A stretch of 64,000 bases of DNA from Acidimicrobiia bacterium (GTDB taxonomy: Bacteria > Actinomycetota > Acidimicrobiia > Spongiisociales > JAHEDJ01): positions 62,001 through 126,000 of the forward strand of contig JARGFH010000001.1 of NCBI GenBank assembly GCA_029210695.1, in the 5' to 3' direction. Made by a program: the position numbers and the translations under genes. Numbering within the stretch: position 1 is the stretch's first letter; every line of letters begins with the position of its first letter. Positions 18,650 through 30,331 of this stretch are shown piece by piece. The notes beneath the pieces are model-generated. The model saw nothing but the letters and a program-made list of their open reading frames with translations. It ran no database searches and had not been told where the DNA came from.

Positions 18650-20779
18650 ATGATCAAAATCCCTATTCTGACGTCCGACGAACTACGCATCCCCGAGCGC
18701 TATTCACTGCTCTACGAGCTCGCCTTCAACCTCTGGTGGACATGGGATCCGGTTGGTCAGGATCTCTGGCGAACCGTCCATCCGGGTTTGTGGACGGAAT
18801 ACCACAATCCGATCGATTTGCTGCGTGCCCTGGACCCCGATATCTGGGCGGCGCTCGACGAATCTGAGACCTTCCACGACCTGTACACCGAGGCAACGCG
18901 CCGCTTCGAGGAGTACATGAACGACCAGGACACCTGGTGGACCAGGGAGCATGAGAAGGCGCTGCCGTCGGGGCCGATCGCCTATCTGTGCGCCGAATAC
19001 GGTATCCACCAATCGCTTCCGATCTATTCCGGCGGGCTCGGCGTCCTGGCCGGCGATCACACGAAGGCGGCATCAGATCTGGGTCTTCCGTTCGTCGGCA
19101 CGGGTTTGCTCTATCGCCGCGGGTACTTCCGTCAGGAAATCGATGCCACCGGAGATCAGCAGCACATGCATCCTCACCTCGACGTCCGCCAGCTGCCGGT
19201 TCGCCAGGTCGCAGGGCCGACCGGCGGCCAGCTCAAGGTCGCAGTCGATTTCCCCGGCCGCCAAGTCCAGGCGGTCGTCTGGCTGCTCCAGGTCGGGGTG
19301 GTACCGATCCTGCTGCTCGATACCGACATCCCCGAGAACGACCCGGCGGACCGGCCGATCACCCACACCCTCTACGTGCGTGGTCGGGAGATGCGCTTCT
19401 GCCAGGAGATGGTCCTCGGCATCGGGTCGGTCAAGGCGCTGGCCTCGCTCGGGATCGAACCGTCGGCCTGGCACGTCAATGAGGGCCATGCGGCCATGTC
19501 GATTCTCGAGCGGCTAAAGGACACGGTTGCGGAAGGTCACAGCCTCGCGGAAGCCGAGGAACTCGTGCGCTCGAACACGGCTTTCACGCTGCACACTCCG
19601 GTGCCGGCCGGGAACGAAGTCTTCGATTTCTCGCTCGTCGAGCGGTATTTCGGCTACTGGCCGGGCCTGGTCGGTTGCGACCTCGGCTATCTGGCCAGGC
19701 TCGGTGCCTCTCAGGAAGGAGAGGATGGACGTTTCGACCTCGGTGCCATGGCCATCAAGATGGCCTCGACGGTGAACGGCGTCAGCCAGCGCCACGCGGG
19801 CATCGTCAACGACGGCTGGGGCCACCTGTTGCGTACCCCTGCCATCGGCGTTACCAACGGCGTGCATACCCCGGGCTGGATCAGCCGGGACCTCGACCGG
19901 CTCCTCACTCGCCATATCAGCGTCAACTGGCGGCACAAGCTGGTCGACGACCCGGGGGCGTTCGACGCTATTCGCAAGATCGACGACGCAGAACTCTGGG
20001 CAGCCCACCTCAGCCAGAAGCGGCTGTTGACCCGTTTTGCCCGCGGTCGGATTCGCGGGCAGTTCGCCCGGCATGGAGCGTCACCGAACGAACTGCGCTC
20101 GATCGAGACCATGTTTCCCAGCGATCGACTCACGATCGGCTTTGCCCGCCGCTTCGCCGGTTACAAACGGTCCACCCTCATGTTCCACAACAAGCCGTGG
20201 CTCCAGGCCATCCTGACCAATCCGGACCGCCCGGTGCAGATCGTGTTTGCCGGCAAGGCACATCCTGCGGACCAATGGGGAAGCGGACTTCTACAGGAAG
20301 TTCACGAGCTGGCCAACACTCCCGAGTTCAAAGGCCACCTCTATGTCCTCGAGGACTACAGCCTCCGGATGGCCCAGTTCCTCGTTCAGGGTGTCGACGT
20401 GTGGTTGAACAACCCGCGCCCGCCGGAGGAGGCGAGCGGCACGTCCGGCATGAAGGCCGCCCTCAACGGTGCCATCAACGTGTCAACGCCGGACGGCTGG
20501 TGGATCGAAGGCCACAACGGCTCGAACGGCTGGGTCTTCGGAAGCGAGCACGGAAACGGCGACCACGCCGCCCAGGACGGCGAAGACGCCGTGGCGCTCT
20601 ATCACACCCTCCAGGATCAGGTGATACCCACGTTCTTCGACCGTGACGACAAGGGCGTCCCCCACGCCTGGGTGGCGATGATGAAGGAATCGATCATCTC
20701 CGTGATCAACGACTTCTCCACTGCGCGAATGGTGTCCGAGTATGCAGAAAGGGTGTATTTGCCGCTGGTGGGTCACTAG
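18650..20779 (+). CDS. glgP: alpha-glucan phosphorylase
   Basis: YSGGLGVLAGDH, NEGHAA, FARRFAGYKR, EASGTSGMKAALNG (PLP lysine). Confidence 0.96.
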   Translation: MIKIPILTSDELRIPERYSLLYELAFNLWWTWDPVGQDLWRTVHPGLWTEYHNPIDLLRALDPDIWAALDESETFHDLYTEATRRFEEYMNDQDTWWTREHEKALPSGPIAYLCAEYGIHQSLPIYSGGLGVLAGDHTKAASDLGLPFVGTGLLYRRGYFRQEIDATGDQQHMHPHLDVRQLPVRQVAGPTGGQLKVAVDFPGRQVQAVVWLLQVGVVPILLLDTDIPENDPADRPITHTLYVRGREMRFCQEMVLGIGSVKALASLGIEPSAWHVNEGHAAMSILERLKDTVAEGHSLAEAEELVRSNTAFTLHTPVPAGNEVFDFSLVERYFGYWPGLVGCDLGYLARLGASQEGEDGRFDLGAMAIKMASTVNGVSQRHAGIVNDGWGHLLRTPAIGVTNGVHTPGWISRDLDRLLTRHISVNWRHKLVDDPGAFDAIRKIDDAELWAAHLSQKRLLTRFARGRIRGQFARHGASPNELRSIETMFPSDRLTIGFARRFAGYKRSTLMFHNKPWLQAILTNPDRPVQIVFAGKAHPADQWGSGLLQEVHELANTPEFKGHLYVLEDYSLRMAQFLVQGVDVWLNNPRPPEEASGTSGMKAALNGAINVSTPDGWWIEGHNGSNGWVFGSEHGNGDHAAQDGEDAVALYHTLQDQVIPTFFDRDDKGVPHAWVAMMKESIISVINDFSTARMVSEYAERVYLPLVGH

Positions 20780-20803: not shown

Positions 20804-20914
20804 CTAGTGGTCCGTCGCGGATTTGGTGACTTGGTCTCCTGCCGGACGATCCCCGCTGTGGCAGGGTTCGTGGCACTGCCTACCCCGGTCATCAAATAGC
20901 AGACAGACCACTAG
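20804..20914. mobile_element. MITE-like element, copy 1 (107-bp net insertion; 111 bp including both CTAG copies)
   Basis: Identical to 27702..27812; imperfect 23-bp terminal inverted repeats (17/23 match); flanked by CTAG at both ends. Confidence 0.9.
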
Positions 20915-21044: not shown

Positions 21045-22217
21045 TCAGAGACGGTCGAGCGCTTTCCGGAGCCCGCGAACTGCCTGAGCGATCCGGTGTT
21101 CGTTTTCGACGAGGGCGAACCGGACGTACCCCTCCCCCGATGCTCCGAACCCAACGCCGGGGCTGACCGCCACCTTGGCACGTTGCAGAAGGTCGATTGC
21201 AAAGTCGACCGAGCCCAGCTCACGGTAGGGGTCGGGAATCGGGGCCCAAACGAACATGGTTCCCTTCGGTGCTTCGGCTTTCCATCCGGCGCGATTGAGT
21301 CCATCGATGAGGACGTCGCGCCTGCGCTTGTAGATCGCGTTCACCTCGGAGACAAAACCGTCACCTTCATTGAGGGCAATGATCGAGGCGATCTGGATGG
21401 GCTGGAACGTGCCGTAGTCGAGGTAGGACTTGAGCTTCGCCAGAGCCGCCACCATCTCGGCGTTCCCAACGACGAAACCGACCCGCCACCCTGCCATCGA
21501 ATGACCTTTGGTCATTGTGTAGAGTTCGACGCCGACGTCCTTGCCGCCCGGGACCTGAAGCAGACTCGGTGGCGAATAGCCGTCGAAAGCCACATCGGCG
21601 TATGCGAAATCGTTGACGACGAATACGCCGTATTCCTTGGCAAAGGCGACGAGTCTGACGAAAAAGTCCTCGTCGACGCACATGGTGGTGGGGTTATGAG
21701 GGAACGAGACGAGGATCACCCGCGGCCGCGGCCAGGAGTCGTGAAAGGTCGCCTCCATCCGATCGAAGAAATCCTCATCGGCGGAGACCGGCACTTTACG
21801 GACCTCGGCCCCGGCCAGAAGCGGGGCGTAGATGTGGATCGGGTAGCTCGGCTCCGGTACGAGTGCAACATCACCCGGCTGCACGAGCGCCCACATGAGG
21901 TGCGATAGGCCCTCTTTGGCGCCGATCGTGTTGATGACTTCCGTCTCGGGATCGAGTTCGATGCCGAACCGTCGCTGGTAGCGGTCTGCAACGGCTTTGC
22001 GGAGATTCGGTATGCCCCTCGACTGCGAATAGCGGTGGTTGCGAGGATTCTGGGCGGCTTCGATCAGTTTCTGGACCACCACCGGGTTCGTCGGAATATC
22101 GGGATTGCCGAATCCGAGGTCAATGATGTCCTCACCCGCCCGTCGTGCCTCACGTTTGAGGCCGTCAACCTTGGCGAAGACGTACGGCGGCAGGCTGTGT
22201 ATGCGGCGAAATTCCAC
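21045..22217 (-). CDS. class I/II PLP aminotransferase, AlaC-like
   Basis: [60 protein letters not shown]. Confidence 0.92.
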
Positions 22218-22280
22218 TAGTAGTCCCTCCTGACCGCAGCGTACCAACGGTTCGGTGCGATGTCGGGATTCCCATCCTGG

Positions 22281-26116: not shown

Positions 26117-27247
26117 TCAGGCGGCCTGAGGCCGCACGTCGCGTAACCTAGCCAGCATCCGGGCGGTTTCGGCCACCGTGGCGAACTGAGCCTGAGTTAT
26201 CGTGCCAACCGGAGTTGACCCTTCCCAGACCACGACAAGCGGCGCAGTCCCTATCTTGTGCAGCAGTCCCGCCGCCGGCTCGTCAGCCTGAACTGCCGGG
26301 TACTCGTCCACCAGTCGGGCAACCGAGCGCACAGACGTCGTCCAACGATCACCGGCCTCCACTGCAGCCAGGGCATCGACCGTCACCACCCCGCCGACCG
26401 ATCCGTCCGGGTCGCCGACCAGATAGAACGGGCGGATCTGCCAGGTCGCATATCTGTCGATGAACGCACCTACGGAGAGCCAATCTCCTTCTACCGGTTC
26501 GGCCGCCGTCATGATGTCACGTGCGGTGACGGCTCCCAGGTCCTTGTTCAGCGACGCGAACTGGATTTCGGCCGTCGCCGCGTTTCTCAGGAACCAGCCG
26601 ATCAACGCTGTCCACAACCCGCCGAATCCGCCGAATACGAGTTGGACCAGGCCCAGTGCGATTAGCGCGGACCCGAAGGTGCGACCCACCTTGCCGGCGG
26701 TTTGCGTTGCCCGTCCCCTATCCCCATGGCGCTTCCACAGCCAGGCGTGCAGGAGACGACCCCCGTCGAGGGGCGCGCCGGGAGTCAAGTTGAAGACCGC
26801 CAATACGATATTGATGAGACCTGCCCATCCAACGATGGCCGCGGGAAGTCCGGTCAGCACGGTGGCGATGCCGTAGAGGCCGGCGCCGAGCAGCACACTG
26901 ATGCCCGGACCAACCCCGGCGATCTCTGCTTCGGCACGGGGGGTTTCAGCCTCGCCCTCGAGCTGGGCGACTCCGCCGAAAGCCCACAGGCTGATGCGTT
27001 CGACTTCGACTCCGTGACGGCGAGCCACGACGGCATGGCCGAGCTCGTGGAGCAATACGCTGCCGAGCAGAGCAGCGGCCGCGATCACCCCTCCCACCAG
27101 ATAGACGGCATCACTCCGGCCGGGAACTGCGGCAGGCAAGAAGCCTCCTGAAGCGGAGAGCGTGATGAGGAAGGCGATCACCAGCACGCTCCAGTTGATT
27201 TCGATTCTGACACCGGCCAGGCGGCCGAGACTGAGATTGTTTCTCAT
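26117..27247 (-). CDS. site-2 protease (M50) with degenerate CBS domains
   Basis: LLHELGHAVVA, IAGVGP, FNLTPGAPLDGGR. Confidence 0.93.
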   Translation of the reverse strand: MRNNLSLGRLAGVRIEINWSVLVIAFLITLSASGGFLPAAVPGRSDAVYLVGGVIAAAALLGSVLLHELGHAVVARRHGVEVERISLWAFGGVAQLEGEAETPRAEAEIAGVGPGISVLLGAGLYGIATVLTGLPAAIVGWAGLINIVLAVFNLTPGAPLDGGRLLHAWLWKRHGDRGRATQTAGKVGRTFGSALIALGLVQLVFGGFGGLWTALIGWFLRNAATAEIQFASLNKDLGAVTARDIMTAAEPVEGDWLSVGAFIDRYATWQIRPFYLVGDPDGSVGGVVTVDALAAVEAGDRWTTSVRSVARLVDEYPAVQADEPAAGLLHKIGTAPLVVVWEGSTPVGTITQAQFATVAETARMLARLRDVRPQAA

Positions 27248-27303
27248 GGGATGACTCCTTTCGGGGTCGGGCGACCGGGCAGTCGCCGGGAGGTGTTGTG
27301 AAA

Positions 27304-27875
27304 TCAGGCGGTAGTAGGACAGGGCTCGAGGAAATCGGACAAAGCCTCTTCCTTGGCCGGGTCGAGAGGTCCACTGGATCGCCAGAGGATGCCGCCCGCT
27401 CGATCGATGAGCAACGTATGAATCGTCGAATCGTCTTCGATACCAAGTGACGCAAGGAACTCGATCTTGTCGATGTAGAGCGTGATCGTGTGTTCACGGA
27501 TGGTCCGGTCGGGAATTCCGGAGCGCATTCCGCTGTCGATGAACCACTGCGAAAGCCGGCCCCTGGATTCGATGACCGGCAACTCGTAGGCAACCAGATT
27601 GGAGTGACGGGCCTGAAGCCGTCTTGCCAAAGGCATCCAGGTATCGACCAACGTCTGATGGTCTCGCCGGAAAGCCAGTATGACGAGGTTCTTCTCGCCT
27701 TCTAGTGGTCCGTCGCGGATTTGGTGACTTGGTCTCCTGCCGGACGATCCCCGCTGTGGCAGGGTTCGTGGCACTGCCTACCCCGGTCATCAAATAGCAG
27801 ACAGACCACTAGGCCCCCCGGAAGGGTGACAGACCTGCGTTCGAGATTCGATCCGGCAACAGTCGGGAAGTGCAT
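27304..27875 (-). pseudogene. conserved hypothetical (ATP10-like / thioredoxin-fold-like) gene disrupted by MITE
   Basis: Removing the 107-bp insert restores one 154-aa ORF, MHFPTVAGSNLERRSVTLPGGLEGEKNLVILAFRRDHQ...; GGAGGAG RBS precedes ATG 27875. The family call is from recalled similarity only. Confidence 0.85.
27702..27812. mobile_element. MITE-like element, copy 2, intragenic
   Basis: Identical to 20804..20914; the CTAG duplication is supported by in-frame restoration of the host gene. Confidence 0.93.
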
Positions 27876-27903
27876 AACTCCTCCATGAGACTCTTCAACT
27901 TGT

Positions 27904-28626
27904 CTACGGAGCCCGCCACCGGTTCGGATGAATGAGTCTCTCGGCCGACTCAGAACCCGACCAAGCGAACGGTCCGGCGAATGGTGTCTGCACTGCCGGG
28001 TCGTCAACGAGCAAATCGAATCTCAGATGTGGGACGGAGGCGGTCATCCCCTGTTTCAGCATTCGGCTCAGCGCCGTTTCGAGGTCCGCATCGGAGAACT
28101 CGAATCCGTCATCCACCAGGCGTTCGGGCAAGACCCTGGTGCTGGAAAGGCCGATGGCCTCGGCCTTCTCGGCGCCAAGCGCGAGCCGCATCGCGAGTTT
28201 CGGTACCGGGAGAACGGCGGGTCGGTGAACTGCACGGACCAGGTGCTCCGCGAACTGCTTCTGACGCACGGGAGAAGTACCAACGAGGTTGACGGGTCCT
28301 TCGAGATCGGATCCGATCAAATGGTCAAAGGCGCGAATGACGTCGGAGAGGGTGATCCAGCTCCACCACTGCCGTTCATCGCCGATAGGTCCGCCGAGTC
28401 CAATTTTGAACAACGGCACGAGCCGCTCCATCAACTGAGCACGCCGCGACAGAACGAGACCGGTGCGTGGATAGACAACGCGGATGCCCGCTTCGGCTGC
28501 CGGTGCCGCGGCCATCTCCCAATCGAAAGTCAACGAAGCGAGATAGTCGTCGGTCGGACCGCGCGAAGAGGACTCCGTGAGGATTTCGTCACCCCGATCG
28601 CCGTATATGCCGATCGCCGACTGGGA
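27904..28626 (-). pseudogene. TIGR01777-family (YfcH-like) NAD-dependent epimerase, N-terminally truncated
   Basis: Begins at SQSAIGIYGDRGDEILTE; has LGGPIGDERQWWSWI, GPVNLV, STRVLPERL...GFEF; no N-terminal Rossmann GxxGxxG segment. Confidence 0.8.
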
Positions 28627-28793
28627 TCGACCTGCGAAGTGGGTGACTTTTATGCACAGCACTTCGGTTGTTCTACGTGGCCGCGGACAACCGGGATGAT
28701 GTTCTTTGAACCTTCTCCGAGAGCGACCGGCTCAGGCGCAAGGCCCAATGAGAACGATGTATTCGGCATAGCCGTGGGTCGAGACCCGGGAGT

Positions 28794-30158
28794 TCAGGGC
28801 GATCGCCCTCTGGTCGTGTACCGGTGACCGAGCGGACTGGTCCACTCGTGGTCGCCGGCTTCGGTGCGCCGGTAGCTCCAGCCCGCACCGTGTCGTACGC
28901 AGTGGTCGTGCCGGCAGAGTGGGGCAAGGTTGCACCAGCACGTCGGTCCGCCGTCAATCCAGGGCGTGATGTGGTCGAGATCGCACCGCGTCGACGAGAC
29001 ACGGCATCCCGGGAACGCACAAGTCGGGTAGGCAGTCTCGATCGTGCGCCGATCTGCTGCTGTGGGGCGGCGGCGAGTGCTCCCGGAACATATCGGTTGG
29101 TGCTCGGCGTCGGTAACAACGAATCGCCACTCGTCCCTGCGCGAGGTTTGGGCCACCTGGCGTGCGATATCCGAAATCACCGGGCCGTAGCCCCCAAGAT
29201 CACCGGGAGACTCCGCAAGCTCTGCAAGCGTGGCCAGGTCAACCGTCATCACAAGTGATCCTCGCCTTACCTTGCGCCCAGGGTGTGAAACGGTGGGATC
29301 GAGCAAGTCGAGGGCGACATCCGCTCGGAGTTGATCCATCGTGCGCGTCTCTCCTGAGGTCCGTAGGTCGCGAGCAGCCGAATCGATGCGATCACGGATC
29401 CGGGCGGCTCGATCGGGCGGCAGGTCCATCAGGTACAGGTGTGTTGTGCCGTCAGAGCTGGGCTCGAGAACGACTCGGCGCTCATCGACAGCGTTCTCAT
29501 AGCGGTGCTTGGCATCTTCGGGATCGGCCTCGACGCTGAGCTTTCGCAGCAGCGCGGTCAGCTGCCCGGTCGTGAGCTCGGAAGCCCGCTCCAACGCGAG
29601 GTGGGCAATTTTCTGCGCCTGAGTGGCCGGCAGATGATCGGTGCGATGAAGGATGAGATTGGCACGGCGCCTGTCGACACGCCCGGCAACAAACTCCTGC
29701 CAGACAGTCGGCAGCCGCGTCTGGAAGTCTCGAGCTATGGAGAGTTCGTTGTCCGCTGCCCTCCGGGTGAGCCGGAGCGCTGCCCGGATCTCGGATGAAC
29801 AGGCTTTCTCCACTAACTCGAAATCGGTCTCGCCATCCCGGTTCAACTCGTCGGTGACTGCATCGGCCACTGAGACCATTGAGGCATACAACCGTGCCTG
29901 GTAGTGCGATGCCATCCGCTGATGGGCCGCCATCACGATGACGCGATCGTGGCCCGACAGATCCTCAACGTCGATATCCGACAGCAGAGCAGACAGCACG
30001 ATCCCGGGTTCCATCCCGGCCAACTCGGGCGGAATAGATGGCGCGGAAGGAGTTGCTGAATTCGCCTCCTCGATCGCCAGAGCCAGCTCCAAATCAGCTT
30101 TGTCGGCTTGGTCAAGCCAGCCCTGGATCTCTGTATCCAATGTCAGCGTATCGAACAT
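28794..30158 (-). CDS. DUF222 + HNH endonuclease (13E12-repeat family)
   Basis: RTMDQLRADVALDLL, LGGYGPV, CAFPGC...CDLDHITPW.DGGPT...NLAPLCRHDH, WTSPLGHRY. Confidence 0.92.
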   Translation of the reverse strand: MFDTLTLDTEIQGWLDQADKADLELALAIEEANSATPSAPSIPPELAGMEPGIVLSALLSDIDVEDLSGHDRVIVMAAHQRMASHYQARLYASMVSVADAVTDELNRDGETDFELVEKACSSEIRAALRLTRRAADNELSIARDFQTRLPTVWQEFVAGRVDRRRANLILHRTDHLPATQAQKIAHLALERASELTTGQLTALLRKLSVEADPEDAKHRYENAVDERRVVLEPSSDGTTHLYLMDLPPDRAARIRDRIDSAARDLRTSGETRTMDQLRADVALDLLDPTVSHPGRKVRRGSLVMTVDLATLAELAESPGDLGGYGPVISDIARQVAQTSRRDEWRFVVTDAEHQPICSGSTRRRPTAADRRTIETAYPTCAFPGCRVSSTRCDLDHITPWIDGGPTCWCNLAPLCRHDHCVRHGAGWSYRRTEAGDHEWTSPLGHRYTTRGRSP

Positions 30159-30166
30159 ATGTTCGA
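30151..30166. promoter_or_regulatory. LexA (SOS) box
   Basis: Perfect TCGAAC-ATAT-GTTCGA, the actinobacterial consensus TCGAAC-N4-GTTCGA, overlapping the DUF222 start codon. Confidence 0.88.
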
Positions 30167-30187
30167 TCATACCCGGCGCGGGAGACA
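30166..30187 (-). promoter_or_regulatory. RecA-NDp/PafBC-like promoter, probably leaderless
   Basis: TGTC-N12-TATGAT; ATG follows 7 nt after the -10 hexamer. Confidence 0.65.
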
Positions 30188-30224
30188 GAAAACAGCGCCT
30201 TGAATTCTTGCCCATCGAGGCATA

Positions 30225-30251
30225 AACCCCTCGCTTCTGAAGCGAGGGGTT
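30225..30251 (-). terminator. probable intrinsic terminator hairpin
   Basis: aacccctcgctt-ctg-aagcgaggggtt 12-bp stem; ends TTTAT on the minus strand, upstream of the DUF222 promoter. Confidence 0.6.
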
Positions 30252-30331
30252 CCAACCATCCCATCACAATGGTCGAAGCAACTAACGAGCGACCAACAAG
30301 ATGAGTCCAAACAGGGCCGGTGCCCACCCGC

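Follow-up and report, generated by a model that had tools for sequence, protein, structure and literature searches.

The question raised by this locus is whether two neighbouring reading-frame fragments on the minus strand are the remains of one gene and, if so, what split them and how. They lie in a window of 64,000 nucleotides, the whole stretch of DNA analysed here, from an Acidimicrobiia bacterium. The N-terminal fragment (P0001, 27809..27875, − strand) consists of 22 codons ending in ...TLPGGL. It starts at the ATG at 27875–27873, and a GGAGGAG motif (27878..27884, − strand), which by its sequence would serve as the ribosome-binding site, is located 2 nt upstream of this ATG. The C-terminal fragment (P0002, 27304..27705, − strand) begins with L-EGEKNLV..., repeats Leu22, and carries residues 23–154 up to the stop at 27304. 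Between the fragments, two direct copies of CTAG, read from the plus strand at 27702..27705 (left) and 27809..27812 (right), are spaced at 107 bp and enclose 103 bp, and the Leu22 codon at the end of the N-terminal fragment is the CTA within the right CTAG. The enclosed core (27706..27808) is, like the two CTAG copies, assigned to neither strand. The initial annotation interpreted this arrangement as a MITE insertion with a 4-bp target-site duplication and proposed that deletion of the element together with one CTAG fuses the fragments. Its arithmetic proved right throughout: the restored gene has 465 nt and 22 + 132 = 154 codons with a single terminal stop.

As the insert length of 107 equals 35 × 3 + 2 bases, the reading frame is shifted. 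The frame now read from the gene's own ATG (27702..27875, − strand) comprises 22 native and 35 element-encoded residues with the tail ...KSATDH, and it is terminated, after passing through the whole element, by the TAG at 27704–27702. Thus, the annotated frameshift and the stop at the far end were both found, and such an arrangement goes well past what chance could produce. Since the own start yields only 22 native residues followed by 35 foreign ones up to the TAG of the far CTAG, we conclude that the gene is inactivated, and both fragments should be annotated as one pseudogene. The further statement that the restored gene has no other lesions is correct with respect to stops and frameshifts, of which there are no more, but it has to be qualified by four amino-acid changes of this lineage (F16V, D21G, W34R, and V102I). 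The next gene downstream on the same strand, 56 bp after the broken one, encodes an M50-family peptidase (26117..27247, − strand; PF02163, 81.6 bits), and the arrangement of the two genes makes a polar effect of the insertion on it possible.

The homologues were searched for with the C-terminal fragment as a query, which gave 129 candidates, including 108 at E ≤ 0.001. Twelve of the best 13 non-self homologues were 154 aa long and one was 166 aa long; a 115-aa match (P0004) turned out to be the window's own truncated call and was left out of the non-self set. In 14 homologues aligned with both fragments, the N-terminal fragment corresponded to residues 1–22 and the junction was crossed without a gap, so that the homologous TLP-x-D-L-E-G stands against TLPGGL and LEGE of the two fragments. 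The contiguity of the homologues, suggested by the initial annotation as a check, was thereby observed.

An uninterrupted 465-nt gene was also present in four of the six congeneric genomes, with nucleotide identities of 95% (G001), 89% (G004), 85% (G002), and 83% (G005). The remaining two congeners, with a genome completeness of only 77% and 56%, gave no match to the gene. Among the contigs of relatives in public sediment metagenome runs, one (X5) joins across the site, with 12 letters between, and two others (X1 and X3) lead from 27702 immediately into the flank on the other side. The element was covered by none of the relatives' contigs, which have approximately 85–97% likeness, in four sequencing runs; the organism's own reads were not found among eight sequencing runs, in which the share of words reached 0.10 at most. 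The uninterrupted allele expected in sister genomes or in reads was thus seen in four sisters and in the run contigs of relatives, all of which lack the element, and the contiguity of the homologues and the four sisters across the site confirms that the insertion knocks out a gene. In a draft assembly of 181 contigs, many of which break at repeats, the same picture might be produced by a wrong joining of two loci that each end in a copy of the MITE. However, the flanks rebuild one gene in the order and orientation seen in the four sister genomes, and the M50 peptidase gene follows downstream as in G001, which keeps the same gene order. An assembly artefact is therefore hardly credible, and we regard the split gene as real.

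As for the function lost, the ATP10 profile (PF05176) matched 61 of 104 homologues at E ≤ 0.01, over the profile positions ~96–250 of 256, and five checked homologues scored 24.8–38.3 bits against a cut-off of 22.3. The gene's own C-terminal fragment gave no Pfam match at E ≤ 0.01, and no PF05176 match was obtained for the closest homologue (P0003). The structural model of the closest homologue, built with the family alignment, had a pLDDT of 91.5 and matched thioredoxin folds of the TlpA/ResA/peroxiredoxin type with TM 0.5–0.64 and 10–20% identity. A search of the solved structures with the family profile resulted in no matches at E ≤ 1. The alignment indicates that the CxxC carried by the TlpA/ResA/peroxiredoxin-type enzymes is absent at the equivalent place. 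The broken gene is thus predicted, with its family membership drawn from the homologues and its fold from the model, to encode a cysteine-less thioredoxin-fold protein of the ATP10 family. With this family it has in common the profile matches in its homologues and the thioredoxin-like fold, but the bacterial proteins are only ~154 aa long, correspond to the C-terminal 60% of the profile, and have no CxxC. Yeast Atp10 has a role in the assembly of the F1Fo ATP synthase; a comparable role of the bacterial proteins would be hypothetical.

The predicted fold and the conservation of the family also bear on whether the interrupted gene might still be functional. An open reading frame at 27304..27774, in frame with the C-terminal fragment, starts from a GTG inside the element (27774), and a restart at this codon could provide a 156-aa protein having a foreign N-terminus of 24 residues. 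Nevertheless, the 21 residues lost in this way would form the two strands with which the predicted fold begins (E6–10 and E15–18), and this part holds the invariant P19 as well as F3, P4, L11, and L18, which are conserved in at least 90% of the 104 homologues. In addition, no promoter-like site was found in the region 27200–28000, and inspection by eye revealed no clear, properly spaced ribosome-binding motif before the GTG. An N-terminally replaced product of the GTG-started 156-codon frame might conceivably be made, but we consider a gene that still functions in this manner very improbable and proceed from its inactivation.

The inserted core of 103 bp is non-coding. Its ends, TGGTCCGTC... 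and ...GACAGACCA, form imperfect terminal inverted repeats that agree at ~19 of the first ~25 alignment columns, and the element is predicted to fold as single-stranded DNA into a long hairpin with an MFE of −25.7 kcal/mol (z −3.94). No Rfam match to the element was obtained, and no promoter or terminator consensus sites were found in it. When the 111-bp stretch was compared with the genome by BLAST, 30 matches were recorded: 24 at 100%, one at 110/111, and five partial ones at contig ends. This corresponds to 25 full copies and five partial ones on 27 contigs. In a search that allowed up to four substitutions, the cores of all 25 full copies (2575 bp) contained no substitution. The element was found in none of the six congeners. 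It is thus small and non-coding, has terminal inverted repeats, a target duplication, dispersed copies, and an empty site, and its ends, as described below, are those of an insertion sequence (IS) of the IS630 family; the 25 identical copies complete the picture of a MITE, and the name given in the initial annotation can be retained.

The identity of the copies limits their divergence from the master copy to ~0.0012 per site (95%), which means that ~0.5 changes are expected per 465-nt gene since the burst. Judged by the 25 identical copies and by their absence from the congeners, the burst is very recent. The proposed recency of the insertion at our locus agrees with the absence of differences in 25 × 103 bp, with the zero of six congeners carrying the element, and with the restored protein, which has kept all 11 residues that are invariant in the 104 homologues.

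Beyond the genus, full-length relatives of the MITE with 73–80% identity were detected in four genomes that belong to the same order but to a different family (G200, G151, G221, and G176). Most of the other weak matches covered only the ~25-nt ends of full insertion sequences, and the related loci come from records of Acidimicrobiales or Acidimicrobiia. The literature on IS630 and CTAG, searched by terms other than a taxon name, yielded no Acidimicrobiales element. These results document a MITE family of uncultured Acidimicrobiales that had not been described before.

The sister genomes also disclosed the origin of the target. The site reads TTCGAGG (CTC-GAA in the gene strand) in all four sisters and in the run contigs, and TTCTAGG on each side of the element here. 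The third position of codon 22 is accordingly C in the CTC of all four sisters and A in the CTA of this genome, a synonymous change that is placed on this lineage by three outgroups. By this comparison, it was the synonymous CTC>CTA change at Leu22 that created the CTAG target in this lineage. Because all the relatives read CGAG, the CTAG-containing empty allele is one that we infer. The claim of an exactly reconstructable empty site was upheld with a nuance: the gene is indeed uninterrupted in the four sisters, but the exact CTAG empty allele occurs nowhere among them. CTAG is scarce in the genome, with 2552 occurrences observed versus 4641 expected under a second-order model (0.55 of expectation).

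The same alignment suggested a different order of cause and effect, namely that the gene was already under relaxed selection before the element came and that the insertion is a consequence of its dispensability. This lineage has accumulated four non-synonymous changes (those listed above) and three synonymous ones, against two non-synonymous and eight synonymous changes on the G001 lineage; five further changes could not be polarised between the two. The replaced residues include D21 (D in 90 of the 104 homologues, changed to G) and W34 (W in 72 of the 104, changed to R). As the identical MITE copies limit the change in the gene after the insertion to ~0.5 substitutions, the changes of this lineage probably predate the insertion. 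However, the contrast between the lineages is not significant (Fisher p = 0.16), R34 is found in 11 of the 104 homologues and V16 and G21 in two each, and the restored gene retains all the invariant residues and has no stop or frameshift. There is a hint of an earlier relaxation of selection on the gene, no more, and we consider it unlikely that dispensability came first; the recent insertion into a gene with an otherwise intact frame remains our preferred reading.

The partner of the MITE was recognised by its ends. The terminal letters TGGTCTGTCGC... were also present at two other types of end in the genome, at ten places for end A and at eleven for end B, each preceded by CTAG; the MITE has its terminal 11–12 nt in common with both. 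In total, CTAG flanks 24 of the 25 MITE copies and all 21 IS ends. All but three of the IS ends are situated within ~80 bp of a contig end, from which it follows that a longer repeat broke the assembly there. The partner IS thereby explains many of the contig breaks, and the assembly contains no complete copy of it. End A adjoins, on the opposite strand, the C-terminus of a transposase from a partial copy (PF13358 DDE_3, 53.3 bits; NF033545 'IS630 family transposase', 76.5 bits), and end B precedes the N-terminal helix-turn-helix part of a transposase. A complete relative of 354 aa having the HTH and DDE_3 domains was found in another genome, G154, where it scored 231.8 bits with NF033545 (cut-off 100). 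In both genomes, the reading frame of the transposase stays open up to the element's final base (...SATDH), and its stop codon is the TAG of the flanking CTAG.

By the sequence of its ends, the MITE is a derivative that carries the terminal repeats of an IS630-family IS present in ~10 copies in this genome. Of the first 28 positions in the left end of the MITE, 22 are identical to IS end A, and an IS end from another genome (L056) matches it at 20 of 20. As the latter match is better than that with the resident IS, the MITE may descend from a related IS and not from the resident one. The common ends make it most likely that the transposase of the resident IS moved the MITE in trans by cut-and-paste. 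An origin from the IS5 family, suggested by the 4-bp CTAG duplication, was considered and rejected because the ends of the element sit on an IS630-type transposase; the IS5-type profile PF01609 (DDE_Tnp_1) matched at six other places in the genome and not at the ends of the element.

The assignment to the IS630 family raises the question of how many letters of the target are duplicated. To our knowledge, all characterised transposases of the IS630/Tc1-mariner group duplicate TA, and IS630 itself reportedly transposes 'to TA in the 5'-CTAG-3' sequence', as stated in the title of a study. A canonical event of this type, in which only the TA within CTAG is duplicated and the element is 105 bp long with G...C termini, has to be weighed against a longer duplication. 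With a 105-bp element of this kind, a duplication of the TA within CTAG would be indistinguishable from one of CTAG as a whole; both models therefore give the same sequence for 24 of the 25 copies, and these copies fit either. The reconstruction of the empty site is identical under every model of duplication.

The remaining copies are informative. The 4-mers on the two sides are identical in all 25 full copies, 24 of them being CTAG/CTAG and one GTAG/GTAG (C11:726-828), and a metagenome copy (L104) is flanked by TTAG/TTAG. Both complete non-CTAG copies thus repeat the first letter of the target on the right side and need at least three duplicated letters, which departs from the TA-only duplication of IS630/Tc1-mariner elements. 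If only TA were duplicated, each of them would require a mutation that turned the element's final base into precisely the letter of its flank, whereas the family shows not a single change in 2575 bp. At least NTA must therefore be duplicated, and since a G follows in every case, duplications of 3 bp and 4 bp are inseparable. The 4-bp duplication and the boundaries given in the initial annotation agree with the GTAG/GTAG and TTAG/TTAG copies, with the reservation that a 3-bp NTA duplication followed by an obligatory G looks the same.

Further copies with a non-C first letter were sought by a pattern search of 401 genomes, which gave five new left ends. For four of them, no right end was located within 1.5 kb (136 bp for L112), and the fifth (L111), a 159-bp variant flanked by TTAG/CTCT, fits no duplication model. 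An exact-pattern scan of genome contigs gave only four loci, with CTAG or TTAG as the left flank and a recognised right end in none. The base beside the left end was almost always G in the unbiased sets, which, like the family of the partner transposase and the TA duplication of ISY100 in vitro (PMC2170065), speaks for the canonical geometry. In view of the two non-CTAG copies, we nevertheless regard a TA-only event as decidedly unlikely and retain a duplication longer than TA.

Whether this extends to a general property of the group is a more tentative matter. This Acidimicrobiales lineage of IS630-family elements, with its MITEs, may cut the target so that the ends are staggered by 4 nt (or 3 nt) and NTAG is duplicated, a proposal to which we would give rather less than an even chance. 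If it is true, the element would end one base short of the last codon of its transposase, and the target would supply this base together with the stop codon. A family whose strand-transfer geometry is regarded as uniform would then contain a mechanistic variant.

The comparison with the known elements places the new one between several types. As in the IS630/Tc1-mariner group, including IS630 of Shigella sonnei, the partner transposase matches NF033545 and PF13358, CTAG is strongly preferred, and the element has short terminal inverted repeats and gives rise to non-autonomous miniature derivatives; the canonical duplication of the group is TA, according to PMC2170065, whereas the two informative copies described here have a four-letter NTAG. 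The resident IS and its relative in G154 resemble IS870 of Agrobacterium vitis, in which the stop codon of the transposase is supplied by the target site, as stated in the title of the IS870 paper, which is cited in PMC13630536, in that their transposase frame runs to the end of the element and is closed by the TAG of the flanking CTAG.

With MITEPsy1 of Pseudomonas syringae pv. phaseolicola, compared by its description, the present element shares its size, terminal inverted repeats, insertion at CTAG, and a 4-nt duplication. This description gives ~100 nt, terminal inverted repeats, a CTAG or YTAA target, and a 4-nt duplication for MITEPsy1, which its authors derive from the IS5-family ISPsy2 (PMC3189936); the ends of our element, in contrast, are located on an IS630-family transposase. 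Like the Stowaway-like MITEs of the Tc1-mariner type, the element is a miniature derivative that has kept only Tc1/mariner-type ends and was amplified in a burst. Unlike it, the Stowaway-like MITEs are eukaryotic and duplicate TA, and we know of no sequence relation between them and the present element. A 4-bp duplication of CTAG/YTAR is characteristic of the MITEs derived from the IS5 family.

Taken together, it is very probable that a 103-bp MITE with IS630-family ends hit, in the course of a recent burst, a CTAG made by this lineage in codons 22–23, duplicated its target, and inactivated a 154-codon ATP10-like gene. In the proposed course of events, the synonymous change at Leu22 would first have provided a CTAG that is absent in the relatives. 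An IS630-family transposase supplied in trans would then have moved the MITE by cut-and-paste into codons 22–23, with duplication of the target, and the shifted frame would have left only the product of 22 native and 35 element-encoded residues described above. The same burst also split at least two other genes. The case is a textbook-clean knock-out by a bacterial MITE, in which the fragments, the duplication, the empty site of the relatives, and the family of the partner transposase are all recoverable. To the original observation, the present analysis adds the IS630-family partner, a duplication longer than TA, a target made by a synonymous change, and the scale of the burst. The event is of an ordinary kind, since MITE knock-outs are common, and its wider weight is modest; the mechanistic interest lies in a duplication of more than 2 bp in an IS630-family context.

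For the examination of the other insertions, Pfam was applied to 41 frame fragments flanking the copies at 24 of the 25 loci (L018 being the copy in the interrupted gene; none came from L007), and a knock-out was counted only if consecutive Pfam profile coordinates confirmed the insertion. In this way, the MITE was found to split a short-chain dehydrogenase (SDR) gene between the adh_short_C2 positions 155|157 (C2:3017-3119, L024) and a DAK2/FakA-like gene between the Dak2 positions 114|122 (C104:97479-97581, L010). At least three of the 25 insertions thus break ordinary genes, the ATP10-like gene included. Two other interrupted frames, one of 501 aa at C88:59369 and a GGDEF-containing one of 370 aa on C107, had no Pfam support and were left out of this count; the stop-to-stop frames across the 25 restored sites were not decisive at 63% GC. 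The GTAG-flanked copy on C11 adjoins, or lies within, a DDE_Tnp_1_4 transposase gene. Another copy is situated 14 bp upstream of the ATG of fpg, the formamidopyrimidine-DNA glycosylase gene (C104:89681-89783, L011), which it could cut off from its promoter, and a copy on C115 lies downstream of an ABC permease-type frame, where it occupies the loop of a GC-rich palindrome. The window itself contains a second identical, CTAG-flanked copy (20804..20914, assigned to neither strand), which is intergenic and lies between the convergent genes for a carbohydrate-phosphorylase-family protein (18650-20779, + strand) and a class I/II aminotransferase (21045-22247, − strand).

The MITE copies at C109:33732, C148:4321, and C108:33353 are embedded in short motifs that recur and follow the pattern CTAGGTTCTAGGTTTT or AACCTAAAACCTAG; these may represent a small intergenic repeat family offering CTAG targets. 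The genome as a whole has 3.9 Mb in its 181 contigs, with 97.85% completeness and 0.38% contamination, and is ~1 Mb larger than its six congeners (1.4–2.9 Mb). A different repeat end of ~66–77 bp was observed at C126:118390-118466 and at ~14 other contig ends with 100% identity. It is a second high-copy mobile element breaking the assembly, and its beginning inside an IS630-family copy on C126 indicates a nested insertion.

Upstream of the broken gene, the frame at 27904-28731 (− strand) belongs to the DUF1731/epimerase family and is devoid of the first ~115 positions of the Epimerase profile, so this gene looks 5'-truncated. The likeness to the sister genome G001 stops near 27960, where G001 has a 314-aa ORF resembling a lactate/malate dehydrogenase (a name given by eye). 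Just beyond this break in synteny, a gene encoding DUF222 and an HNH endonuclease (73.2 and 23.8 bits, respectively) is located at 28794-30263 (− strand), which possibly belongs to an inserted segment.
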